From the IMG/VR virus record IMGVR_UViG_3300024348_000026, positions 3,530 through 67,529 of that record: a DNA stretch of 64,000 nucleotides. One strand, given 5' to 3'. Of the stretch, positions 912-20,064 are shown piece after piece. The position numbers were made by a program, and so were the translations under genes. The notes under the pieces were generated by a model. It was given only the letters and a program-made list of their open reading frames with translations, had not been told where the DNA came from and searched no databases. The number at the start of each line of letters is the position of its first letter. Position 1 is the stretch's first letter. This stretch comes from a virus.

Positions 912-1154
912 TTAATATAAGTTTAAATATTTGCCGATTTCTTTGACTTCTGGAATTGAGAATGGGTTTATAGAGATCCGTTGCGAAATTTCTCCTTCTA
1001 TAGCTGATTTATAAATATTAAAAAGAAGAATCTTTTGCAGATAATCGGCATTTTGGTGAGCGCCGATTGTGTTGTAGAGGTCATTCATTTTAGCGTCTCT
1101 ATCATTCAAGAGACGAACTGCTTCGGCGTGGGTTGCGTTTTCTGTAGTGAACAT
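912..1154 (-). CDS. hypothetical protein
   Basis: ORF packing. Confidence 0.65.
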   Translation of the reverse strand: MFTTENATHAEAVRLLNDRDAKMNDLYNTIGAHQNADYLQKILLFNIYKSAIEGEISQRISINPFSIPEVKEIGKYLNLY

Positions 1155-3319: not shown

Positions 3320-3685
3320 TTATTTATCGACAAACTCTTCTTTTATCATTTTGCGAAACTCTTCTTCGGTGGCAGTCAACCATCTGGCGGGTTCTCCGTC
3401 ATTAAACATCCACTTGCGAACACACATTTTTTGAGAAAGGAATCTGGCGTATGCCGCCTTTTTTAACCTATCTTGTGTGTTGCTGTCGGCAACTAGCCCC
3501 CACATTAGGAGTCCTCGCCATTCGTCCAATTCACGCCGAAAAAGCTCCTCATAAATTGAACCACAGTCAACTTTATCTCTCCCATGATTAGTCAAATAAG
3601 ATTTAACCGCCCCAAAGGCTTCAATCATTTCACGAATATTCATGATTCGCCCAAGAGCTTCTTCGATCATTTGTTTTTTGTTCAT
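3320..3685 (-). CDS. hypothetical protein (leaderless)
   Basis: ORF directly after a promoter. Confidence 0.7.
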   Translation of the reverse strand: MNKKQMIEEALGRIMNIREMIEAFGAVKSYLTNHGRDKVDCGSIYEELFRRELDEWRGLLMWGLVADSNTQDRLKKAAYARFLSQKMCVRKWMFNDGEPARWLTATEEEFRKMIKEEFVDK

Positions 3686-6608: not shown

Positions 6609-6865
6609 TGAAAATACTCACGAAGGTATCGAAGGACTTGAGCCATTGCGGAATGATCCGATTCATCGTTAATGTCCCAAATCTCCAAGAGGCTTCCGAC
6701 CGTCTCCACGCGCTCCACTTTGCGAGACCATTCGCCATTGTGTTCGGTTTCGTCCACGATGAGAGGTAGATCCTCCCAACGCAGAACAAGGCGTGAGACG
6801 CAATCCCCACCAGTCTCTTGTTGGGTTACGGTTTCTGACTTCGGTATTGATTTATCGTTTTGCAT
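6569..6865 (-). CDS. cassette-borne hypothetical protein
   Basis: starts inside attC5 and ends inside attC4. Confidence 0.65.
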   Translation of the reverse strand: MQNDKSIPKSETVTQQETGGDCVSRLVLRWEDLPLIVDETEHNGEWSRKVERVETVGSLLEIWDINDESDHSAMAQVLRYLREYFQQNAESIHPESKP

Positions 6866-7169: not shown

Positions 7170-7210
7170 GGTCTGATTCAGTTGCGGGCGTCATAGCCCC
7201 AGCGTTAATT
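7115..7210 (+). mobile_element. degenerate attC-like site 6
   Basis: arms GGCTGATGAC / GTCATAGCC; R' GTTAATT; R'' decayed. Confidence 0.5.
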
Positions 7211-7297
7211 TTTGAGTGCTAAGAATCCAAAAAGCATTAGAGATAAAAGAAATCCAAAAAGAATAAGCTAAAAATTTTGAAAGGTTCATCTTTTATA

Positions 7298-9454: not shown

Positions 9455-9831
9455 TTTTTAATTGTGTATTTTTGTTGATTATATAAGTATTGAAAATCGC
9501 CATATTTATCATCAAATAGGTGGCGGCCATAAATATCAAGAACGAATGCTGCCAGAGACGGAGAATAAACTATCCCAGCTTCTCTGGTTTTGTATATTAA
9601 TCCGTTTTCGGTTAGTTGAGTGTCTTCCCAAGAAACAATATCTCCTTCATAAATTTCCTCTCCGCATTCCCCCATAATTCCAGTAGAAAACTGGACGATT
9701 AAATCCTCGTCTTCTTCTCTATGGACGTATCCATCCATAACATCTTCCATAAATAACTGCCCAAGAGAATTTGTAAAATAACCAGAGGGCATATATTCTT
9801 TCGTTTTCTTATTAAAAACTCTAAATTTCAT
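9451..9831 (-). CDS. YopX family protein
   Basis: MKFRVFNK...QFSTGIMGECGEEIYEGDIV. Confidence 0.85.
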   Translation of the reverse strand: MKFRVFNKKTKEYMPSGYFTNSLGQLFMEDVMDGYVHREEDEDLIVQFSTGIMGECGEEIYEGDIVSWEDTQLTENGLIYKTREAGIVYSPSLAAFVLDIYGRHLFDDKYGDFQYLYNQQKYTIKK

Positions 9832-10076
9832 AGCCGAATACTAATCTATATCGATCTGATTGTCCATAAAATACTCGTCCTTATCCATAAATAATTCTTT
9901 CACAGTGTCTTCCGTAAAGGATTGGTGGATTAAAATTGTTTTAAATGTGTCGATCCAATCCTCCAAGCTTGCGTCCCAATTAAGGGTGAGTTGGACACTT
10001 TTAAATCTTGTTGGATCGCTAACGCTGATGGTTATGTTTTTAAGTTGATTGATCATAAACAGAAATTTTTGTAAAG

Positions 10077-10153
10077 TGGTAGCCAAGGCGGGACTCCAAC
10101 CCGCAAAACCTAGTTTCTAAAACTAGTATGTAAAGCAATTCCATCACTTGGCC
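10077..10153 (-). tRNA. tRNA-Leu(TAG), short variable loop
   Basis: acceptor GGCCAAG/CTTGGCT; anticodon arm CTAGT-TTTAGAA-ACTAG; encoded CCA. Confidence 0.85.
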
Positions 10154-10335
10154 ATTTTTTTAAAGACATGCTCCTCACTATCATCATCGGTAAAGATAAT
10201 TTCTTTCGCGGAGAGAAACATGTGAAAATCTTTGATAAACATTGGGAGTTTTAATTCTTTAATATCAGTGAATTCGTATCTAGAGTTCAGGTCTTCTCTG
10301 GTTAAATAAATAGTTCCATCGATGATTTCGCTCAT
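10144..10335 (-). CDS. hypothetical protein (leaderless)
   Basis: TTGCTT-N16-TAACAT-N6-ATG. Confidence 0.6.
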   Translation of the reverse strand: MSEIIDGTIYLTREDLNSRYEFTDIKELKLPMFIKDFHMFLSAKEIIFTDDDSEEHVFKKMAK

Positions 10336-10378
10336 AGGTATATGTTATAGATATTAAAGAATAAAGCAAGAAAATATT

Positions 10379-10596
10379 AACAAATATCAGTCGCTACTCT
10401 GATTAGAAGTCTTTTTTGGACCAATAGGATAAGCTTCCTTCGCACAAGCGTATTCAGCCATTCTATTTACTCCCCACACACGGGTTATCTCTTCGGTCAA
10501 GGTCGGATTACTCATATCAGCATTCTCGGTGTGTCTCCGTCTGATACTTTCGGCCAACTTATGTTCCTGCGTGTCTGCTTTCCACGCCGATTTGTT
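10379..10596 (-). ncRNA. ~218-nt tRNA-framed structured RNA
   Basis: closing stem AACAAAT/ATTTGTT; D-like arm GCGT-GGAAAGCAGAC-ACGC; T-like arm ATCAG-AGTAGCGA-CTGAT; long structured insert. Confidence 0.65.
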
Positions 10597-10601
10597 AAAA
10601 C

Positions 10602-10692
10602 TGGAAATGAGCAATGCTACTGGCGAGTAAGTCTCCAAGATCCCTCTCCTCCGCTTGCGCGGCAATAGCCCGTTTTTCATTGGGCGCTCATT
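10602..10692 (-). ncRNA. 91-nt CCA-ended structured RNA
   Basis: AATGAGC/GCTCATT-T-CCA; GCTATTG/CAGTAGC helix; CCGC-GCAA-GCGG GNRA hairpin. Confidence 0.6.
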
Positions 10693-10702
10693 ATTTGAAA
10701 AT

Positions 10703-10778
10703 TGGAGGGCGGTGTGAGAATTTAACTCACTTAAAGATGGGTTGCAATCATCTGCCTAAACAGTCGAGCCAACCGCCC
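10703..10778 (-). tRNA. tRNA-Cys(GCA)
   Basis: GGGCGGT/ACCGCCC-T-CCA; anticodon loop TTGCAAC. Confidence 0.85.
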
Positions 10779-10787
10779 ATTAAAAAT

Positions 10788-11300
10788 TTATTTTTGTAAC
10801 TCTAAAAGTTTTTCTTTTAAGCGTTCTTTTATAGCCCTTGAAGGTTTGTTATTATTAATACGAGGAAATTTTCCAGACTCTTTTATTGCTTCCGTTAATG
10901 CTCTAAGCATGGTTCCCGCATGACCAGTATATAGGAAAAACTCCATTACGTCTCCAGCTTGAGGACAAAGAATAACACTCAAGCCCATGTGTTCATATTT
11001 ACTGGAAGAAGGGACAATAAACCCAATACTACTCATAAACATTGTATCGTCAAAATGGAAGACTTTTACTTGAGGCTTGTCTGCCGCCCATTTTTCCAAT
11101 ATTTCTCCATAAACATAACCGCCCATTCCTTTTTCGTATTCTGGCGCGGAATGACGAAGAGCGTGAAGGTTTTCGTCTTCTGGGGGATCGTAATCGATGT
11201 CAATCAATTCGCTAAGAATCTTTTGTTGCTCTTCGGTCGCTTGAATCTCTTCATTGTCGATCCAATAAGAATCGCCTGAGTAGCCTGTGATTTCCTTCAT
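10788..11300 (-). CDS. hypothetical protein inside the tRNA array
   Basis: own promoter TTGACT-N17-TACTCT-N6-ATG (11307-11335). Confidence 0.7.
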   Translation of the reverse strand: MKEITGYSGDSYWIDNEEIQATEEQQKILSELIDIDYDPPEDENLHALRHSAPEYEKGMGGYVYGEILEKWAADKPQVKVFHFDDTMFMSSIGFIVPSSSKYEHMGLSVILCPQAGDVMEFFLYTGHAGTMLRALTEAIKESGKFPRINNNKPSRAIKERLKEKLLELQK

Positions 11301-11344
11301 GCGCAAAGAGTAGCGGAAAAAGAGAAGGAAGTCAAGAGGAAAAA

Positions 11345-11425
11345 TGAAGCGCGAGGAAGTTGAATCCTTTTTACTAAAATGCTTCCTTGCAAGGAAAGTG
11401 CTACACCCGTGTAGCCACGCGCCCC
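11345..11425 (-). tRNA. tRNA-Ala(TGC), atypical
   Basis: GGGGCGC/GCGCTTC with G3.U70; loop CTTGCAA; extended variable region; no CCA. Confidence 0.65.
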
Positions 11426-11511
11426 TTAAAATTGACAGAAGTTCAAAACTGTCATATAAACTTATTTTGTCAGACTGGTATAAGTGAGCCTTGATTGGCT
11501 TTTTAAAAAAG

Positions 11512-11584
11512 CAGTCCCACTCTTACTTGAAAAGAGAATTGAGGATTCAAAATCTTCTGTTTTAGCCAGCTAAACTATAGGGCA
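11512..11584 (-). tRNA. tRNA-Gln(TTG), degenerate
   Basis: D arm and CTCTT-TTCAAGT-AAGAG T arm intact; loop TTTTGAA; mismatched acceptor. Confidence 0.5.
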
Positions 11585-11663
11585 ATTAAATTTAAGCATT
11601 TTCTGCTTTTCTATTTTTAAATCAAAAAATTTGTGTAAAGAAGGTTAGCTCTATTTATCTATC

Positions 11664-11981
11664 ATGAATCGCGAATTATTAATCAAGGCCCTTTCTTTTC
11701 TTACCTCTATAGGGCTTGCTATTACAGGCTATTTTTTAGCGGATACTTACGCTAAAATGGACGGAATGAGAAAAGATATTACTGAACTACAGATTAGCTC
11801 AGAGAGAGTAAGTGCTAGTAGATTTTCTTCTTCTGATTTCGTAAAAGCGAAAGAGATTATTGACTCTCAGATTGTCGCCACAGACAAAAGAGTTATTGCT
11901 TTAGAAGAGTCTCAGAAAACAATTAAAGAGTATTTGGTTGAAATGAAGACCGATATTAAAGAGATTAAAAATCAGAGATAA
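11664..11981 (+). CDS. membrane-anchored coiled-coil (holin/XhlA-like) protein, antisense to the tRNA array
   Basis: N-terminal TM segment plus coiled coil; GTGTAA motif at 11633. Confidence 0.6.
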   Translation: MNRELLIKALSFLTSIGLAITGYFLADTYAKMDGMRKDITELQISSERVSASRFSSSDFVKAKEIIDSQIVATDKRVIALEESQKTIKEYLVEMKTDIKEIKNQR

Positions 11982-11990
11982 GATCTGACT

Positions 11991-12734
11991 TTATAATGTT
12001 TTTATAAAAGCTTTATTTATTTGCTCGTCCTTTAAAATAAGAACACTGACGCCATTTTGCTCGCGAACTTTTTTAATTTTTTCTTCATCTTTGACCGCTA
12101 AAAAATCATTCTTAGGGTCAAGATATATGTTTTTATCTATTAAGTAAAAGTCAGGAAAGTATTTTTTATTATCGTATTTTAAATATTTTGGCCTAATCCA
12201 CTTAATATCCAAGTCGTCTAGTATCTCTGCCGTTCTTTTTTCGTAACTAGATTGTAGGCAAACTTCATTGCCAAAACTATCTTTTACATAATATTTATTA
12301 CTGCGTCCCGCCTTAGCCCGATAACCTCCTTGATTGCCATTTTTATTACCTTTGTGAGAGAAATGCTTAAATTTTTCTTCTTCTGACAAATTATCTATAA
12401 ATAATTTAAAAGCATCCTTACTAGAACGAGTTTTTAATAACCCTCTTTTTTTAGCTTGGCTAGTTGTTAACTGATTAATGCCATGTTTTTCCAACAAATC
12501 TCTATAAGAAAGTCCAGAATCGTATTCTTTTTGAATAAAATCCCAATCGACAGCATCTATTTGGGATTTTCTAGGCTTGTCATCGAGCCCTTTTGGGCCA
12601 GAAAAGGCGCAGCTTTTAAATCCAAATTTTTTTAACCAATATTTGATTGTAGATTGGCTACAGGAGTATTTCTCAGCAATTTCTCTTTGAGATAATTTTT
12701 GTTTAATCAACCTTTCTAATTCGAATTTATTCAT
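11991..12734 (-). CDS. HTH plus PD-(D/E)xK free-standing homing-type endonuclease
   Basis: LSQREIA...SQSTIKYWLKK HTH; QSSYE...YFPDFYL...YLDPK. Confidence 0.8.
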   Translation of the reverse strand: MNKFELERLIKQKLSQREIAEKYSCSQSTIKYWLKKFGFKSCAFSGPKGLDDKPRKSQIDAVDWDFIQKEYDSGLSYRDLLEKHGINQLTTSQAKKRGLLKTRSSKDAFKLFIDNLSEEEKFKHFSHKGNKNGNQGGYRAKAGRSNKYYVKDSFGNEVCLQSSYEKRTAEILDDLDIKWIRPKYLKYDNKKYFPDFYLIDKNIYLDPKNDFLAVKDEEKIKKVREQNGVSVLILKDEQINKAFIKTL

Positions 12735-12790
12735 ACTCATTATTACACGATTTTGGTCAAACGAGTATTTTTATTTTAGTCAAATTACAG

Positions 12791-12866
12791 TCCTCCCGAC
12801 TCGCATCGAACGAGTAATTTCCAATTATCAATCGGAGGTTATATGTGCCGTTTTAACTACAGGAGG
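12791..12866 (-). tRNA. tRNA-Ile(GAT)
   Basis: CCTCCTG/CGGGAGG; TCCGA-TTGATAA-TTGGA; TTCGA T loop. Confidence 0.85.
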
Positions 12867-12872
12867 TAAAAT

Positions 12873-12947
12873 TGGAGGGTCGTCAGAGATTTTAACTCTG
12901 TTCTTCCTTCATACCAAGAAGGGCTTCAACGTCAAAGCTTACGGTCC
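12873..12947 (-). tRNA. tRNA-Thr(GGT), two acceptor mismatches
   Basis: CCTTC-TTGGTAT-GAAGG; encoded CCA. Confidence 0.65.
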
Positions 12948-12955
12948 ATTAAAAG

Positions 12956-13038
12956 TGGATCTGGAGGTGAGATTCGAACTCACGGTGTTGTATTCCTACT
13001 TACAAGGTAGGTGCTTTCGACCACTTAGCGACTCCAGA
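12956..13038 (-). tRNA. tRNA-Thr(TGT), extended variable loop
   Basis: TCTGGAG/CTCCAGA-T-CCA; CCTAC-CTTGTAA-GTAGG. Confidence 0.9.
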
Positions 13039-13163
13039 ATATAAAATTTAACACTAGACCTTTTGTTATGTTTCTTGGTCCTTCTAGAGAGGACAACTAG
13101 CGTAATATTTAATCATTTTTATGGGTAATTAATCCACTACTCGCGAAAAAACATTAAAAAATA

Positions 13164-13252
13164 AGAAAGACATGAAGATCGAACTCAAAAACTTCTTAGG
13201 ACCTCCCTCTAATTAACAATTAACGACCACCACCGAGGCGGCATTATCTTCC
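13164..13252 (-). pseudogene. degenerate class II (Ser-like) tRNA
   Basis: GGAAGAT acceptor, long variable region, TTCGA loop, weak anticodon arm. Confidence 0.4.
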
Positions 13253-13261
13253 ATTTAAAAT

Positions 13262-13348
13262 TGGAAGAACACTGAGCAATCCAAGCCCATGACCTTCGAC
13301 CACCATCATCTTTCCAAAATGCGCCCCAAGCTTAGGGGTTAATACTCC
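13262..13348 (-). tRNA. tRNA-Ser(GGA)
   Basis: loop TTGGAAA; long variable arm; G.U-rich acceptor; CCA. Confidence 0.65.
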
Positions 13349-13357
13349 ATTTAAAAT

Positions 13358-13464
13358 TGGTTCGGCCCCCGATCAGGTCGCTCATTCAAGCCGTTGCAAA
13401 AACCTACGGATTACGAGAAAGAGGATCGAATTCCCTCCTTGAATACCCTCATTGCGGGGTCCGA
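13358..13464 (-). ncRNA. K-turn CCA RNA, copy 1
   Basis: CCCCGCAATGAGGG...GAGCGACCTGATCGGGG...ACCA. Confidence 0.65.
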
Positions 13465-13467
13465 AAT

Positions 13468-13590
13468 TGGTGCGGTGGCAGTTCGTCAATACTGCCTTGC
13501 AAGGGACTCCGAAATACCCTATGATCTCCTTTTTCTAGTATAGGCCGAGATTTCCTAACTTTTACTTCGGGTTTTTTTGACTATACCGCA
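13468..13590 (-). ncRNA. 123-nt CCA-ended tRNA-like RNA
   Basis: TGCGGT/ACCGCA-CCA; T-like arm GGCAGT-ATTGACGA-ACTGCC; CCGAAGTA/TATTTCGG helix. Confidence 0.6.
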
Positions 13591-13598
13591 TTGAAAAT

Positions 13599-13674
13599 TG
13601 GTGGCCAACATCAGATTCTAACTGACAATACAAAGTTCGTAGCTTTGCGTGATATACAATTTCACTAATCGGCC
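13599..13674 (-). tRNA. tRNA-Arg(ACG)
   Basis: CAAAG-CTACGAA-CTTTG; CCA. Confidence 0.9.
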
Positions 13675-13680
13675 TTAAAT

Positions 13681-13757
13681 TGGTCCGCGAGGTCAGGCTT
13701 GAACTGACATTATACTCTTTCACAAAGAGGACTTTTACCATTAAAGTTACTCACGGA
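13681..13757 (-). tRNA. tRNA-His(GTG) with U-1:A73
   Basis: T-CCGTGAG/CTCGCGG-A-CCA; loop TTGTGAA. Confidence 0.85.
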
Positions 13758-13765
13758 TTAAAAGA

Positions 13766-13923
13766 TTTCCCCACTACCGAAAATCACAGTGACTATTTCC
13801 TATCGGTCGCTACCCCAATCATACTTTAATTTGCGTCGGATTACTATATTAGCCCTCTAGAAGCGACCTAGACGCTCGTTAATATAGCGCATTATGGGAT
13901 CTTTGTCCATAATGGTGAGGAAA
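13766..13923 (-). ncRNA. 158-nt multi-hairpin RNA with complementary loops
   Basis: TTTCCTCAC/GTGGGGAAA closing stem; CATTATGG/CCATAATG; GCTATATTA/TAATATAGT; loop GTCGCT complementary to AGCGAC. Confidence 0.65.
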
Positions 13924-13926
13924 AAT

Positions 13927-14000
13927 TGGTGCGCCGTGCGGGAGTCTAACCCGCGCTTGATACTTGGAAGGAACCCGTGCTAACGTAACACTTACAGCGC
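13927..14000 (-). tRNA. tRNA-Gly(TCC)
   Basis: GCGCTGT/ACGGCGC-A-CCA; loop CTTCCAA. Confidence 0.85.
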
Positions 14001-14007
14001 ATAAAAA

Positions 14008-14094
14008 GGTGAGCGGGATACCTCGTAATTATTGTGAATCAGGCGTGGATGTTGTCCCATTGGATCGCCACTTATATCACTCATACGCCGCTCA
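14008..14094 (-). ncRNA. 87-nt irregular long hairpin RNA
   Basis: TGAGCGG/CCGCTCA-CC closing stem with nested short helices. Confidence 0.45.
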
Positions 14095-14102
14095 TTGAAA
14101 AC

Positions 14103-14178
14103 TGGCCCCTGTTGGTAGAATTGAACTACCGTCTCAAGATCTTCAATCTAGCGCTAAGGCCAACTCAGCTAAACAGGG
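14103..14178 (-). tRNA. tRNA-Phe(GAA)
   Basis: CCCTGTT/AACAGGG-G-CCA; loop TTGAAGA. Confidence 0.9.
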
Positions 14179-14185
14179 TAAAAAT

Positions 14186-14277
14186 TGGCACTATCCCTTG
14201 GGCTTGAACCAAGATACCGTTCTAGACGGAATACAACATCTTAACAGGATGCCCTCTTGCCATTAGAGTAGGATAGT
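14186..14277 (-). tRNA. tRNA-Asn(GTT) with a long variable arm
   Basis: ACTATCC/GGATAGT-G-CCA; GCATC-CTGTTAA-GATGT; extra CCGT-CTAGA-ACGG hairpin. Confidence 0.85.
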
Positions 14278-14282
14278 AAAAT

Positions 14283-14356
14283 TGGTGAACCGCCACGGTA
14301 ACTCTCCGTGTTCTAGATGTTAAAAGCATCTTGCATCAATTTAATGCTTGCAGTCC
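14283..14356 (-). tRNA. tRNA-Lys(TTT)
   Basis: AGATG-CTTTTAA-CATCT; non-canonical T loop AGAGTTA; CCA. Confidence 0.85.
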
Positions 14357-14373
14357 ATTAAAAAATCATAAAA

Positions 14374-14664
14374 TTGGCTTTTGAATTAAACGGAATCTTC
14401 CATTATGAACCTATATATGGAGAAGAAAAATTAGATAAAATCCAAAACAATGATGAGCGAAAATTCGCAGCCTGTCGAGAAGCTGGTATTTCATTATGTA
14501 TAATAGACACAAGCTCTCAAAAATACGTCAAGCCTAATACTTCTAAAAAATACTTGGATATTATCATTGAGATTATAAATAAGCACACGGATAAGAAATC
14601 GAATCTTACTCACAAAGATTTGGAGTCTTCGTCGCCTAGCCTTGGAACATGCCCGTGCGTTTAA
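14374..14664 (+). pseudogene. C-terminal fragment of a Vsr/PD-(D/E)xK homing-type endonuclease
   Basis: LAFELNGIFHYEPIYG...DERKFAACREAGISLCII; N-terminus missing; runs into tRNA-Trp. Confidence 0.65.
14584..14658 (-). tRNA. tRNA-Trp(CCA)
   Basis: GAAGA-CTCCAAA-TCTTT; TTCGA T loop; no encoded 3' CCA. Confidence 0.75.
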
Positions 14665-14668
14665 AAAT

Positions 14669-14760
14669 TGGAGGATAACTGAGGTGTCGATCCCCATCCC
14701 GCTACTAACGGAATCACCTGTTTTCAAGGCAGAGTCGCAAGCCGTTGCGATAAATTATCC
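14669..14760 (-). tRNA. tRNA-Ser(TGA)
   Basis: GGATAAT/GTTATCC-T-CCA; loop CTTGAAA; long variable arm. Confidence 0.85.
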
Positions 14761-14766
14761 ATAAAT

Positions 14767-14866
14767 TGGCTCCCCGCTCAGGTCGCTCTTATTCAGGTGT
14801 CTAGCGTAATCGGTTTTCTCGCCTTCTTCGCCATTGACGTTTCAGAATAAGCCCTCATTGTGGGGT
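14767..14866 (-). ncRNA. K-turn CCA RNA, copy 2
   Basis: CCCCACAATGAGGG...GAGCGACCTGAGCGGGGAGCCA. Confidence 0.65.
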
Positions 14867-14877
14867 ATTGTATAAAT

Positions 14878-14967
14878 TGGTGCGTGTTGAGGAAGTCGAA
14901 TCCCCTATGGTTCTTATGTTCTGGGTTTACAATCCAGCGCAGCACTCTCCAACTCTGCCGAACACGC
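14878..14967 (-). tRNA. tRNA-Tyr(GTA)
   Basis: GCGTGTT/AACACGC-A-CCA; loop TTGTAAA; long variable region. Confidence 0.9.
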
Positions 14968-14975
14968 TTTGAAAA

Positions 14976-15027
14976 TGGTCGCTCCCCATACGGCTCATGA
15001 AACCGTTACGCTTGCAAGCAGGGAGCG
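14976..15027 (-). ncRNA. 52-nt T-armless mini-tRNA with CAT anticodon
   Basis: CGCTCCC/GGGAGCG-A-CCA; GCT-TGCA-AGC; ACGGT-TTCATGA-GCCGT. Confidence 0.7.
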
Positions 15028-15035
15028 TTTGAAAA

Positions 15036-15107
15036 TTGCAGGTGCGAGAATCGAACTCGCTTACGAGGCTTATGAAACCCCTTTCTGAACCATTCGAATT
15101 ACCTGCG
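15036..15107 (-). tRNA. initiator tRNA-fMet(CAT)
   Basis: C1xA72 mismatch; GGGGT-TTCATAA-GCCTC. Confidence 0.85.
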
Positions 15108-15118
15108 ATTGAAAAATA

Positions 15119-15186
15119 AAGGTGTCCTACCATTAGACGACGACGAGCAATAAGCGTATCGGTAGGGGTCGAACCTACATTTCCTT
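15119..15186 (-). ncRNA. YrlA-like (circularly permuted tRNA-like) RNA 1
   Basis: order is T arm GTAGG-TTCGACC-CCTAC, looped acceptor, D arm GTCT-AATGGTA-GGAC; closed by AAGG/CCTT. Confidence 0.7.
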
Positions 15187-15200
15187 AAAATTTGTAAAAT

Positions 15201-15277
15201 TGGTCAGGCATGTGGAATTTGAATCCACAATCTCAACATCCCAAATGTTGCGCGATACCAAGTTACGCTAATGCCTG
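15201..15277 (-). tRNA. tRNA-Pro(TGG)
   Basis: CAGGCAT/ATGCCTG-A-CCA; CAACA-TTTGGGA-TGTTG. Confidence 0.9.
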
Positions 15278-15344
15278 ATTGACGCCCCCGTGCAATCTGT
15301 TACACTAATCAATATCGGAGTCGCACCGCTCTTGAGGCTGAATC
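15278..15344 (-). ncRNA. YrlA-like permuted RNA 2
   Basis: T-like arm CGG-TGCGACT-CCG, then D arm GTGT-AACAGATT-GCAC; closed by GCCTC/GGGGC and GATT/AATC. Confidence 0.55.
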
Positions 15345-15351
15345 TATAAAT

Positions 15352-15427
15352 TGGTCATGCTAGGGGGATTTGAACCCTCCAATGACACGTTGAAAGCGTG
15401 TCGTGCTAACCTTTACACTATAGCATG
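15352..15427 (-). tRNA. tRNA-Glu(TTC)
   Basis: CATGCTA/TAGCATG-A-CCA; ACACG-CTTTCAA-CGTGT. Confidence 0.9.
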
Positions 15428-15713
15428 TTTAAAATTTAAGATTACTAAAGCCGCTCTTACTCGATTGATTAGATCTCCAGTGGCTGCTTGTTCATCTACG
15501 GTTTTCTATCTTGACGGAATCACCCGCTATTGTCGAGAACCTGAAAATTTATCCGCTGAACTTCATTCGAATTAAAAACTCAAAAATGAAAAAACTTAAC
15601 AGGCAAGCGGAATATTGCCATAATAAAAATTTCTGTTTAGTAGGTTTATTTCACCCTAATCTCCCTTTCGGACCTTTGCGGCTTCTTGGCGCTCGCTGCC
15701 GTTGATGTTTTAG

Positions 15714-15741
15714 ACTTTATCTAGTTTCCTGATTTTGTCAA
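15714..15741 (-). promoter_or_regulatory. sigma70-type promoter of the tRNA array
   Basis: TTGACA-N16-TAAAGT with an A-rich upstream region. Confidence 0.65.
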
Positions 15742-15781
15742 CATCTTTTTGTCTTTTTTTCTTCTTCCTCTTTATTCCAAC

Positions 15782-15810
15782 AAAAAAGCCCAACTTTTTA
15801 AGGGTTGGGC
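15782..15810 (-). terminator. intrinsic terminator (attenuator)
   Basis: GCCCAAC-CCTTAAAAA-GTTGGGC-TTTTTT. Confidence 0.85.
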
Positions 15811-15833
15811 CAAAAAAAATCATTTTTTAGCCC
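15807..15833 (-). promoter_or_regulatory. antiterminator hairpin
   Basis: GGGCTAAAAAA-TGATT-TTTTTTGGCCC sequesters the GCCC of the terminator 5' arm. Confidence 0.65.
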
Positions 15834-15838
15834 CTGAG

Positions 15839-15904
15839 TCACCCACGATCCCACTCGCAATTAATTGCGGGTTTCTGCGTGAGTGATGTAAAGGAATATC
15901 TCAT
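15839..15904 (-). CDS. leader peptide MRYSFTSLTQKPAINCEWDRG
   Basis: 21 distinct codons, 18 amino acids; stop 5 nt before the antiterminator; GTGTAA motif at 15928-15933. Confidence 0.75.
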   Translation of the reverse strand: MRYSFTSLTQKPAINCEWDRG

Positions 15905-15945
15905 TTTAATAAAGCTGTCGAAGCTTCTTACACTAATAATACTCA

Positions 15946-16521
15946 TTACCACAAATTTTTCAAGAAATAATTCCATTCTTGGCGAATTTTTTCTGCATTA
16001 AGCATTAAGGCTGGAATTGCAGGTGGTTTTGGTATTTGTCCATTCTTATCATGCCAAGGAGTCAGGTCTGCCTTTTTGAGGTTGCATTTGCGGCAAGCTA
16101 GAACGAGATTATTATGATCGTTGCTGCCGCCCTTGCTCTTTGGATGAATATGATCGAGGGTTAAATCTTTTAAATGATATTTTTCAAAACAATATTGACA
16201 AGTATAGTCGCAAAGTTTTGCAAGATCAAATAAAGTTAATTTTGTTTTTTTTGGTTTTCTGAAGAATTTGCTTGTTACGATAATTACTGTAGGAATTGGC
16301 CAACCTGCGTGGGCGCTTCTTAAGAACGGTTGATCATCATAATATTCTGCTTGACTATTCCAGCTATCTAAAGAATGAAACACAGAACTGTTTTTGTCTA
16401 ACGCGGAAATTCTTTTTTTATGCAAATGCTGAAATGCGGCCCGTGCGGTGACAACTGTAATTGGTTGCCATGCGTTATTAAGAAGCAGGGTTGTTTTTGT
16501 ATTTGCTGTTACAGCGTTCAT
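15946..16521 (-). CDS. HNH endonuclease (McrA-like)
   Basis: LLLNNAWQPI; CQYC...TLDHIHPKSKGG...NLVLACRKCNLKK. Confidence 0.9.
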   Translation of the reverse strand: MNAVTANTKTTLLLNNAWQPITVVTARAAFQHLHKKRISALDKNSSVFHSLDSWNSQAEYYDDQPFLRSAHAGWPIPTVIIVTSKFFRKPKKTKLTLFDLAKLCDYTCQYCFEKYHLKDLTLDHIHPKSKGGSNDHNNLVLACRKCNLKKADLTPWHDKNGQIPKPPAIPALMLNAEKIRQEWNYFLKNLW

Positions 16522-18072: not shown

Positions 18073-18594
18073 TTAGATGTTGAAATGCTTTTTTGCTTCA
18101 TCAAGAGTATAGAAGAATCTGCCAGTATTTCTATAAATAGCATCAACGCAGCAATTTAAATACTTTTTGTCTAAAACTTTTTTGCCATACCAAGTTTTTT
18201 TCATAATATCTTGATCATGGATATGCCCACATAGGTTCCCAACGCATCTTCTCATTTCGTCAGGATGAATTGGGCAGTGAGTCAACCACATTTTTTTATA
18301 TCGGACCATTCCGTGGATCTCCTCAAAAACAGCCATTTGATCGGCGTTTGTTGTTTCTAGATCGTGGTTTCCTAGAATTAGTCTTTTTCTGCCTTTTAGA
18401 TTTCCTATTACATCTAACCCTCTTTTATCAAAAGCAACGTCTCCAAGAAACCAAACAACATCTTGTTTTTTAATAATCTTCTCGTAGGCTTCTACAAGAA
18501 GTTTTTCGTTTTCTTCTGGAGAAGAGATATATTTTCTAAAGTTTGGCAAATTAGTATGTGAAAGATGCCAATCGCTGGTGAAGTAAACGCTCAT
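18073..18594 (-). CDS. calcineurin-like metallophosphoesterase
   Basis: SDWH, LGD, GNHD, THCP, CGHIH. Confidence 0.9.
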   Translation of the reverse strand: MSVYFTSDWHLSHTNLPNFRKYISSPEENEKLLVEAYEKIIKKQDVVWFLGDVAFDKRGLDVIGNLKGRKRLILGNHDLETTNADQMAVFEEIHGMVRYKKMWLTHCPIHPDEMRRCVGNLCGHIHDQDIMKKTWYGKKVLDKKYLNCCVDAIYRNTGRFFYTLDEAKKHFNI

Positions 18595-19058: not shown

Positions 19059-19451
19059 TTACAACAATGGTAAGTGGTCAGTAATTCCTTCGAACTTATT
19101 TTCAAAATGCGGCCCCACTGCAACTGCCGTGGGCGTTTTAACTCCATTAAATTCTGTAGCCCCATTGTCTATAACTAAATGGGAAATTAATCCTGCGTCA
19201 AGAGCTTTTTGGTGAATCTCCATCAACTCTTCTTCACTATTAACATAACAGACAATTTTGCGAAAGGATGTTTTAAGCCACAGCTCACACTCTAATTTAT
19301 GCTCCATCGGTATCTTGTATACAAAATGTCCAGTTCCAAACATTACATCTTTAGTTAAAAATGCCATAGACGCATGGGCGCATTGGCTCCCGATTTTTCC
19401 TTTGCGGCATTTTAGGGCGTTATTCCAAATTATAACTTGCTTGGTATTCAT
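19059..19451 (-). CDS. pth2: peptidyl-tRNA hydrolase, Pth2 family
   Basis: KQVII...KGKIGSQCAHAS...KIV...DNGATEF...TAVAVGP...ITDHLPLL. Confidence 0.9.
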   Translation of the reverse strand: MNTKQVIIWNNALKCRKGKIGSQCAHASMAFLTKDVMFGTGHFVYKIPMEHKLECELWLKTSFRKIVCYVNSEEELMEIHQKALDAGLISHLVIDNGATEFNGVKTPTAVAVGPHFENKFEGITDHLPLL

Positions 19452-19596
19452 TTTTGTGCTGCTAAAATTAATCCCACATTTGCGAAAGCATAAGCATACC
19501 AAGTAAGCGCCCAAGGGAAATTTCCTTTTAGGGCAAAACTGGTTCCAGTAATAAAATAAAGAGCCGTCGAAATTCCTACTGTGAAGGTTTCAAGAT

Positions 19597-20064
19597 TCAT
19601 AAATTATTTTTATATTCGACTATTAAAACTTCAAACCCTTTAAAAACGTCCTGAATCATTGCGTTCACGACGATCCAAGAGCCGCCAGCCCTATCACTCG
19701 CCATTTTATAGGGAATACCGATGATACCCTTAAAATTTAAACCAATCAGTTCTTCCCGCACACCCTCAAAACAGCGGTAAAGGGCCTCGTAATTAACTTG
19801 GCGACATTGGGTTCCATAATTTTTTTGAGCGTGAAGATTAAATATATAACCATTTTGAAATCCAGCAAAACTATTAGTTCCTAATTTTAGACCGCTTGTT
19901 TCTTCATGTAGTCTATATGATTTGTAAGCTTCTGGAAATTGATTTTTAATTTGAAGAGCTATTCCACTTCCCATTACTCCTTGGCAGTTAGCGCAATGCA
20001 AAACAGTATTGACTTTCCCACTTCTAAAAAACTCAAGAATATCCCCTCTTTCGTGATTAATCAT
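19597..20064 (-). CDS. macrodomain (TARG1/Poa1p-like) protein
   Basis: GDIL...HCANCQGVMGSGIALQIK.FP...IPYKMASDRAGGSW. Confidence 0.9.
   Translation of the reverse strand: MINHERGDILEFFRSGKVNTVLHCANCQGVMGSGIALQIKNQFPEAYKSYRLHEETSGLKLGTNSFAGFQNGYIFNLHAQKNYGTQCRQVNYEALYRCFEGVREELIGLNFKGIIGIPYKMASDRAGGSWIVVNAMIQDVFKGFEVLIVEYKNNL

Follow-up and report, generated by a model that had tools for sequence, protein, structure and literature searches.

A conserved mini tRNA(CAU)-like RNA gene in the tRNA arrays of large uncultured phages

At one place in the tRNA array of a large phage, a 52-nt element has the acceptor end and the anticodon hairpin of a methionine tRNA and little else. The stretch in which it lies (the window) comprises 64,000 nt, positions 3,530 to 67,529 of IMG/VR record IMGVR_UViG_3300024348_000026, and makes up most of a 67.5-kb uncultured virus record that is about 53% complete. 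It comes from a large phage whose genes include those for a DnaE-type polymerase and a ClpB-like ATPase. The locus raises two questions: (i) whether this mini tRNA(CAU)-like element (hereafter the mini) is a gene in its own right or the remains of a tRNA and (ii) what an RNA of this shape could do for a phage.

A tRNA-like gene without an elbow

The mini is encoded on the minus strand, from window position 15027 to 14976 with its CCA included. The minus-strand DNA reads CGCTCCC-T-GCTTGCAAGC-GTA-ACGGT-TTCATGA-GCCGT-ATG-GGGAGCG-A-CCA and the RNA CGCUCCC-U-GCUUGCAAGC-GUA-ACGGU-UUCAUGA-GCCGU-AUG-GGGAGCG-A-CCA. All seven pairs of the acceptor stem are Watson-Crick, and the stem is followed by A-CCA; the anticodon-like hairpin has a 5-bp stem, with U.G as its last pair, and a 7-nt loop. 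Just 14 nt on the 5' side, which can form a small hairpin, and 3 nt on the 3' side lie between these two helices, so the T arm is absent and there is no real D arm. The minimum free energy (MFE) fold contains the same three helices (-22.3 kcal/mol, z = -2.8), and 3 of 200 shuffled sequences were as stable. The spacers beside the mini, 8 nt on both sides (TTTTCAAA), are like those at the neighbouring tRNAs.

Neither of the tools used to find tRNAs recognizes the element. ARAGORN makes no call at 14976-15027, even at -ps80, and Rfam, RF00005 included, returns nothing there, either by gathering scores or at E values up to 10 when positions 9500-16500 are searched. Compared with a canonical tRNA, the mini has the acceptor stem, discriminator and CCA as well as an anticodon arm with U33 and a purine at position 37, and lacks the cloverleaf that forms an elbow. 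Genuine T loops follow the consensus UUCRANY with A58 and are closed by a G53-C61 pair. We considered the hairpin as a T arm and rejected this assignment: the fifth base of UUCAUGA is U and not A, so that there is no A58, no G53-C61 pair is fixed in the family described below, and the connector to the acceptor stem measures 0-3 nt (3 nt in the window copy).

An earlier note, written from the letters alone, had described a 52-nt element at exactly these positions, with a perfect 7-bp acceptor stem and CCA, no T arm, and an anticodon arm that echoes, as GGT-TTCATRA-GCC, the arm of the tRNA(CAU) next to it. These observations stand. The echo is real, as the neighbouring arm reads GGGGT-TTCATAA-GCCTC (GGGGU-UUCAUAA-GCCUC in RNA). 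A tiny D-like hairpin, also claimed there, fared less well, as described below.

To find relatives, we scanned 2.9 million viral contigs with patterns taken from the loop, the 3' end or the small 5' hairpin. Five members were retrieved by patterns that fix the loop, one (L256) by the 5' hairpin only and one (L469) by a pattern with N at position 37. The family contains at least seven distinct sequences of 51-53 nt, all from uncultured large phages, in at least five unrelated lineages. Besides the window copy (record G000), they are the minis of this phage's relative (record G001, locus L037), of a 131-kb record (G002, L051), of a complete 365-kb record (G003, L076), of G004 (L094), of a complete 198-kb record with terminal repeats (G005, L256) and of G008 (L469). 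The G003 sequence is found unchanged in L079, L086, L095, L096 and the metagenome contig L101, and that of G004 in L106. G001 is the closest relative, with a DnaE 71% identical to that of the window, and among G001-G005 it alone matches the window DnaE. An all-against-all blastp comparison of six records at 1e-6 left one protein family common to all five lineages, a metallophosphoesterase. Because G002-G005 have no DnaE match and only this one protein family is shared, the mini spans unrelated large phages; we do not take the metallophosphoesterase as evidence, since this family is widespread among large phages and its gene does not adjoin the mini.

A covariance model (R1) built from six minis separates the family clearly from other sequences. 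The seeds score 58-72 bits (71.9 for the window copy) and L469, which was outside the seed, 40.9 bits, while nothing else exceeds 24 bits in 400 sources totalling about 3.4 Mb; the search covered these sources and nine whole records, with loci L190-L200, L301-L338 and L505-L521 outside it. All six records that were searched whole (G001-G005 and G008) have a single copy. Every copy lies within a tRNA array, and the arrays hold from 4 to more than 27 tRNAs. A blastn search of GenBank phages (50,697 records) with the 781-nt surroundings and three minis gave no match. A metagenome scan returned 15 loci, including two members, both of known sequence, and a pattern scan of bacteria and archaea (one genome per prokaryote species) returned 11 loci, none above 21.5 bits and none a member. 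Among the matches listed, every mini has G at position 37, and a scan of 10 array loci for units of 47-64 nt, CCA included, with an acceptor stem, a hairpin and NCCA revealed no other convincing case with a different anticodon.

The homologue search with covariation that the earlier note had proposed supports both helices. Pairs were counted after each sequence had been cut at the loop by a custom segmentation, which was used because MAFFT and model-fitted alignments misregister the upper anticodon stem. Across the family, 44 of 49 acceptor-stem cells and 35 of 35 cells of the anticodon-like stem are paired; exchanging 5' and 3' strands between clades lowers this to 3.09 of 7 and 2.50 of 5, respectively. 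Two-sided changes occur at positions 2, 4, 5, 6 and 7 of the acceptor stem and at 27:43, 28:42, 29:41 and 31:39 of the anticodon-like stem; the change at 30:40 is one-sided (G-C to U.G). Even between the window mini and its closest relative in G001, two pairs of the anticodon stem are compensatory (A-U to G-C and C-G to A-U).

Against this background of changing stems, C3:G70, the hexamer U33-C34-A35-U36-G37-A38, A73 and CCA are invariant in all seven members. The closing pair of the loop varies (U.G, with G-C in L256 and C-G in L469), and position 32 is A in L256 and otherwise U. Invariance is not simply a product of the search, as G37 is present in L256 and L469 although their patterns left position 37 free, and L256 has the ACCA end without its being forced by the pattern. 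G37, to which the earlier note gave no attention, is the most conserved and the most informative feature of the mini.

The connectors are short throughout. On the 3' side there are 2-4 nt before the stem is extended (2 nt in L469) and 0-3 nt after maximal extension (six members), so that the two helices can stack into a rod of ~12-15 bp. The 5' connector measures 13-15 nt and contains a C-U-N-G-C-A motif in 7/7 members, mostly inside a palindrome of 8-10 nt. The hairpin that the earlier note saw here is present in the MFE fold of four of the seven members, with a single case of compensatory change; the motif is thus conserved, and the hairpin is the least certain part of the structure.

These data bear directly on the first question. 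Phage tRNA arrays turn over quickly, and this turnover, together with the likeness to the anticodon arm of the neighbouring tRNA, would fit a tRNA(CAU) pseudogene decaying after an internal deletion. Such a pseudogene is hard to reconcile with at least seven versions in at least five unrelated lineages, all of 51-53 nt, with both stems compensated and the loop invariant, and we give it almost no weight. Descent of all members from a recent transfer of one sequence is excluded because the stems differ. The earlier note had reasoned that intact stems argue against simple decay, a view that compensatory changes in six further distinct homologues bear out; it had also pointed out that full tRNAs at this site in relatives would indicate a recent deletion, and the closest relative, G001, has the short form at the same site, before tRNA-Tyr. 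Judged by its sequences, the mini is a real, selected and conserved RNA gene and not a decaying tRNA.

Kinship with G37 tRNA(CAU) and placement in arrays

The GGU-UUCAUGA-GCC arm is also found in larger bodies. L015 (6689-6761, +) is called by ARAGORN as a full-size tRNA whose acceptor and D arm are initiator-like; no other tRNA lies on its GC-rich contig, and it may be host-derived. The same arm occurs in an 82-nt unit of L022 with a canonical T arm (1175-1256, +) and in D-armless units of 77-78 nt in L003 (3077-3153, +) and L019 (1086-1163, +), and that of L003 is identical to the arm of the window mini over all 17 nt. Together with the mini, these four suggest a size series of G37 tRNA(CAU) relatives. 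Elsewhere G37 is unusual: among 17 distinct ARAGORN tRNA(CAU) of the collected loci, 15 have A37, one C37 and one G37, the last being L015, which was itself fetched by a G37 pattern. The mini-bearing records have, in the stretches read, exactly one ordinary tRNA(CAU) each, with A37 and, in four of six, a mismatched 1:72 pair. Because the shared arm recurs in larger bodies, G37 is otherwise unusual and no mini with another anticodon was found, the mini family would have arisen from an (initiator-like) tRNA(CAU) with G37 by a reduction that is specific to CAU.

Two observations on other tRNA(CAU)-like units belong here. The GC-rich phage contig L022 carries, at 868-937 and 950-1025 (+), tRNA(CAU) loops CUCAUCA and UUCAUAC with altered 3' positions, changes of the kind proposed for evasion of anticodon nucleases. 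In L037, a perfect 5-bp hairpin with a CUCAUAA loop at 6797-6823 (+) receives no ARAGORN call and may be a non-canonical tRNA(CAU); it has no counterpart in the window.

The position of the mini within the array is not conserved. It adjoins an initiator-like tRNA(CAU) in this window only, and its neighbours in other phages are Lys/Tyr, Val, Tyr/Asn, an unidentified upstream unit with tRNA-Ser directly after the mini, or a promoter-like site. Adjacency to tRNA-fMet is therefore incidental, and the link to fMet drawn by the earlier note survives through the G37 loop of the full-size initiator-like L015 rather than through location. G001 keeps the order of mini and then tRNA-Tyr (7199-7249 and 7264-7355 of L037). 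In G002 the mini abuts the next tRNA with a spacer of 0, and in G005 it is the first unit of the array, starting 5 nt after a promoter-like TTGACT-18-AATACT (L256:4755-4788, -). The first base of the L256 mini is A (AxG at 1:72), and the primary transcript may begin there.

G002 also shows the closest likeness between a mini and the tRNA(CAU) resident in the same genome (L349:12730-12801 and 11804-11855, -). Their acceptor bases are identical at six of seven positions, and their anticodon stems differ by a single inserted C-G pair. This similarity hints at exchange between the two genes. A general co-variation of minis with resident tRNA(CAU) was considered and rejected, as the likeness is striking in G002 only and the other lineages are without it.

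What the mini may do

Addressing the second question, our leading reading is that the mini imitates tRNA-Met/fMet as a processed RNA that does not decode and whose loop evades nucleases. We put it forward tentatively, as a possible role that falls short of a probable one. The single-copy gene would be transcribed within the phage tRNA operon to give a stable RNA of ~52 nt, matured like a tRNA by RNase P at the 5' end and ending 3' in the encoded A73-CCA. We infer processing by tRNA enzymes from the shared spacers, the abutment in G002, the promoter-like site of L256 and the RCCA end, which is described as the kind used by RNase P (PMC12710915). The mini would have originated from an initiator-type phage tRNA(CAU) with G37 by loss of the whole elbow (D and T arms), leaving the acceptor helix and a Met-type anticodon stem-loop almost end to end, in a putative rod of ~12-15 bp. 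Since it has no elbow, the mini most likely cannot decode.

We predict that this RNA would instead present its CAU loop and acceptor end to some factor of the host. The most plausible candidate is a VapC-like nuclease that cuts anticodon loops, and the other is MetRS. G37, placed beside the usual cleavage sites, would keep the mini from being consumed, and the RNA could then serve as a competitive decoy or ligand. The earlier note had likewise suggested a decoy for fMet-directed toxins or a MetRS ligand. Cleavage of tRNAs, the initiator among them, by VapC toxins is reported to fall within the anticodon loop (36/37, 37/38 or 38/39; PMC5175351), and substitutions in the anticodon loops of phage tRNAs have been proposed as an escape from such nucleases (PMC10264068). 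For MetRS, recognition is described as resting mainly on the CAU anticodon, and an anticodon-arm mimic with CAU places an mRNA operator under MetRS control (PMC9976931). No matches to the TilS, MetRS or deformylase families were detected in G000 or in G002-G005, so that a partner of this kind would be the host's. A search for pairing in trans between the mini and its fellow array RNAs turned up no complementary stretch of at least 9 nt that recurs among the six genomes.

Several points weigh against such a mimic. The ordinary tRNA(CAU) of phages with a mini keeps A37, so these phages are not generally hardening their Met tRNAs at this position. No partner was found among the MetRS, TilS and deformylase families or among shared neighbour genes. 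To compete with cellular tRNA, a decoy would have to be present in large amounts. The unvarying UCAUGA is perfectly palindromic, a property for which a mimic aimed only at proteins has no use, and selection for processing and stability alone could maintain the acceptor stem and the A73-CCA end. The family is also rare, with at least seven sequences recovered from 2.9 million viral contigs by the patterns used and none from GenBank phages or the pattern-scanned bacteria.

The palindrome is the starting point for a loop-loop ('kissing') RNA, an alternative that we regard as unlikely. Either the self-complementary UCAUGA would pair with a second copy over 6 bp, or A35-U-G-A38 would form four contiguous pairs with U33-C-A-U of any tRNA(CAU), so that the mini displays an AUG codon. 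The complexes would protect Met/fMet tRNAs or tie them up, or else yield a dimeric particle. UCAUGA is the sole internal stretch that is invariant while the closing pair, position 32 and the stem all change, the 5' connector of every member contains a palindrome too (10, 8, 8, 8 or 6 nt), and loop-loop complexes, including those between complementary anticodons, are described as an established and stable RNA interaction. However, the hexamer may owe its symmetry to position 37, the only change needed to create it, and would then be a by-product. The G37 loop occurs also in the full-size tRNAs L015 and L022, where dimerisation is not expected, and any short hairpin with a UGCA loop would give rise to much the same palindromes as those of the connector. 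Less likely again is a structural passenger, that is, a tRNA-shaped module for processing or stability of the array that has no function in trans; it might let RNase P in, protect a 3' end or, in L256, cap the transcript at its 5' end. The mini does lie between tRNAs with the same spacers, abuts its neighbour in G002 and in L256 starts 5 nt after the promoter-like site, and plant-mitochondrial t-elements provide a precedent for tRNA-like processing signals (PMC1920247). But any neighbouring tRNA already supplies an RNase P site, a processing module has no need for an invariant CAU-G37 loop or for a mini form restricted to CAU, and the wholly searched records contain a single copy each, whose place in the array differs from record to record.

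Initiation is the one task of a tRNA that bypasses EF-Tu, and EF-Tu needs the T arm. A working minimal tRNA could therefore dispense with that arm if it were an armless initiator, charged by MetRS and placed in the P site of the 30S subunit without the help of EF-Tu; at a subset of start sites, G37 would pair with C at -1. A73 and C3:G70 in 7/7 members, G2:C71 in 4/7 and the kinship with initiator-like tRNAs are consistent with this, armless mitochondrial tRNAs of 44 nt have been characterised experimentally as tRNAs (PMC9976931), and A37G in tRNA-fMet is tolerated in E. coli, with preference shifting to the complementary -1 base (PMC10018350). On the other side, C at -1 of ATG starts preceded by a Shine-Dalgarno sequence (SD) is not enriched in the six phage records (7-24%), and a 3' connector of 0-3 nt gives a rod and not a boomerang with two flexible bulges. 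Three G:C pairs closing the anticodon stem define initiator tRNAs, and three consecutive G:C pairs next to the loop (29-31:39-41) occur in none of the seven minis: the window copy has G-C, G-C and U.G, and the other members C-G, G-C and U.G or similar. A mismatched or weak 1:72 pair is present in just three members (AxG in two, U.G in one); the other four, including the window copy with C1-G72, have Watson-Crick pairs. Moreover, neither bacterial ribosomes nor bacterial MetRS is known to be adapted to tRNAs that lack an elbow. We consider a minimal initiator very improbable. An improbable role in our view is also the broader alternative of either a working elbow-less tRNA, serving as a nuclease-proof initiator that needs no EF-Tu, or an 'anti-anticodon' RNA to which initiator tRNA is bound by AUGA:UCAU pairing.

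Comparison with known systems and genomic setting

The closest match in shape lies far from phages. According to reviews, armless tRNA shapes occur only in animal mitochondria (PMC9976931). At 51-53 nt and with short connectors in place of arms, the mini has the shape of an armless tRNA (about 42-60 nt in total) and falls into the size class of the armless and T-armless mitochondrial tRNAs of nematodes, mites and other animals, of which the Romanomermis culicivorax tRNA-Arg measures 44 nt (PMC9976931). It shares with them, as they are described, the 7-bp acceptor stem, the 5-bp/7-nt anticodon arm, U33, purine 37 and short connectors. Unlike these organellar decoders, which work with adapted factors and ribosomes, the mini is unlikely to decode, and it differs further in its phage tRNA arrays, its restriction to CAU, its encoded CCA, its invariant G37 and its 0-3-nt 3' connector.

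In logic, the mini appears nearest to nuclease-evading phage tRNAs and to the anticodon-arm mimics of synthetase operators. Like the phage tRNAs proposed to evade VapC, PrrC and colicin-type nucleases (PMC10264068), it has a loop altered right beside the anticodon, with G37 in 7/7 minis versus A37 in 15 of 17 tRNA(CAU). The evading tRNAs are described as full-size, decoding replacements, whereas the mini, without an elbow, would be at most a decoy. The E. coli thrS operator, switched to MetRS by CAU, illustrates that an isolated CAU hairpin can engage MetRS (PMC9976931), although that operator is a cis element of an mRNA and the mini a predicted free RNA with an acceptor end, and no MetRS gene was detected near the mini or elsewhere in G000 and G002-G005. 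With bacterial initiator tRNA(fMet), all seven minis share CAU and A73; the unpaired 1:72 and the three G:C pairs are not family traits. Species 1 and 2 of phage T4 (rnaC and rnaD) are stable RNAs of more than 100 nt from the T4 tRNA cluster that mature together with its tRNAs and are not known to mimic an anticodon arm. By description only, the mini resembles them as a small non-tRNA RNA among phage tRNA genes, encoded inside a phage tRNA array with tRNA-like flanks. No phage mini or armless tRNA(CAU) was found described in the literature searched, which did not extend to the supplementary lists of loop changes in PMC10264068.

Large phages thus encode a conserved, covarying RNA of armless type that is restricted to CAU and has a G37 that ordinary tRNA(CAU) genes lack. 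As a discrete new family with a covariance model, it adds to the RNAs of phage arrays that tRNA finders and Rfam miss. If the mini is a decoy, it would represent an RNA-level counter-defence against toxins directed at initiator or Met tRNAs, a class proposed but undemonstrated for phages. A loop-loop binder or a minimal initiator would bear on how little of a tRNA suffices, and a working elbow-less initiator would mean that phages reinvented the mitochondrial armless design for a task that can be done without a T arm.

The array that holds the mini occupies the minus strand between about 15430 and 10077. ARAGORN finds 12 tRNAs in it, and Rfam alone finds two more, at 13930-14000 and 10706-10778, where ARAGORN is silent; many further units are missed by both tools. 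Short spacers of the type (CCA)ATTTTCAAA separate the units. The parts of the mini and its immediate neighbours are listed in Table 1.

Table 1. Positions in the window of the mini, its parts and the adjoining units
Feature	Positions	Strand	Basis
Initiator-like tRNA(CAU), C1xA72, no encoded CCA, loop UUCAUAA	15036-15107	-	ARAGORN; Rfam 41.9 bits
8-nt spacer UUUUCAAA between initiator-like tRNA(CAU) and mini	15028-15035	-	Same spacer type between other array units
Whole mini	14976-15027	-	Sequence, fold, R1 model 71.9 bits, six homologues
Acceptor stem, 5' strand CGCUCCC	15021-15027	-	Pairs 7/7 with 14980-14986
5' connector, 14 nt, palindromic mini-hairpin GCUUGCAAGC, replaces D arm	15007-15020	-	MFE folds, kept motif
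Anticodon-like stem, 5' strand ACGGU	15002-15006	-	Family pairing, 35/35 cells
7-nt loop UUCAUGA (U33, anticodon CAU, G37, A38)	14995-15001	-	UCAUGA in 7/7 members
Anticodon-like stem, 3' strand GCCGU	14990-14994	-	Family pairing
3' connector AUG, replaces variable region and T arm	14987-14989	-	Connector lengths across the family
Acceptor stem, 3' strand GGGAGCG	14980-14986	-	Family pairing
Discriminator A73 and encoded CCA	14976-14979	-	ACCA in 7/7 members
8-nt spacer UUUUCAAA between mini and tRNA-Tyr-like unit	14968-14975	-	Sequence
tRNA-Tyr(GUA)-like unit, long variable arm, AxC at 31:39, directly downstream of mini	14878-14967	-	ARAGORN at -ps80 only

Further along the array, a tRNA-Ser(UGA)-like unit at 14669-14760 (-) is missed by default ARAGORN and by Rfam and is seen at -ps90. 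An HNH endonuclease gene heads the array (15946-16521, -), and a gene for a helix-turn-helix protein lies within it (11991-12740, -). Just upstream, all on the minus strand, are genes for a metallophosphoesterase (phrog_547; 18073-18594), a PTH2-type peptidyl-tRNA hydrolase (19059-19514) and a macro-domain phosphatase-like protein (19597-20064).

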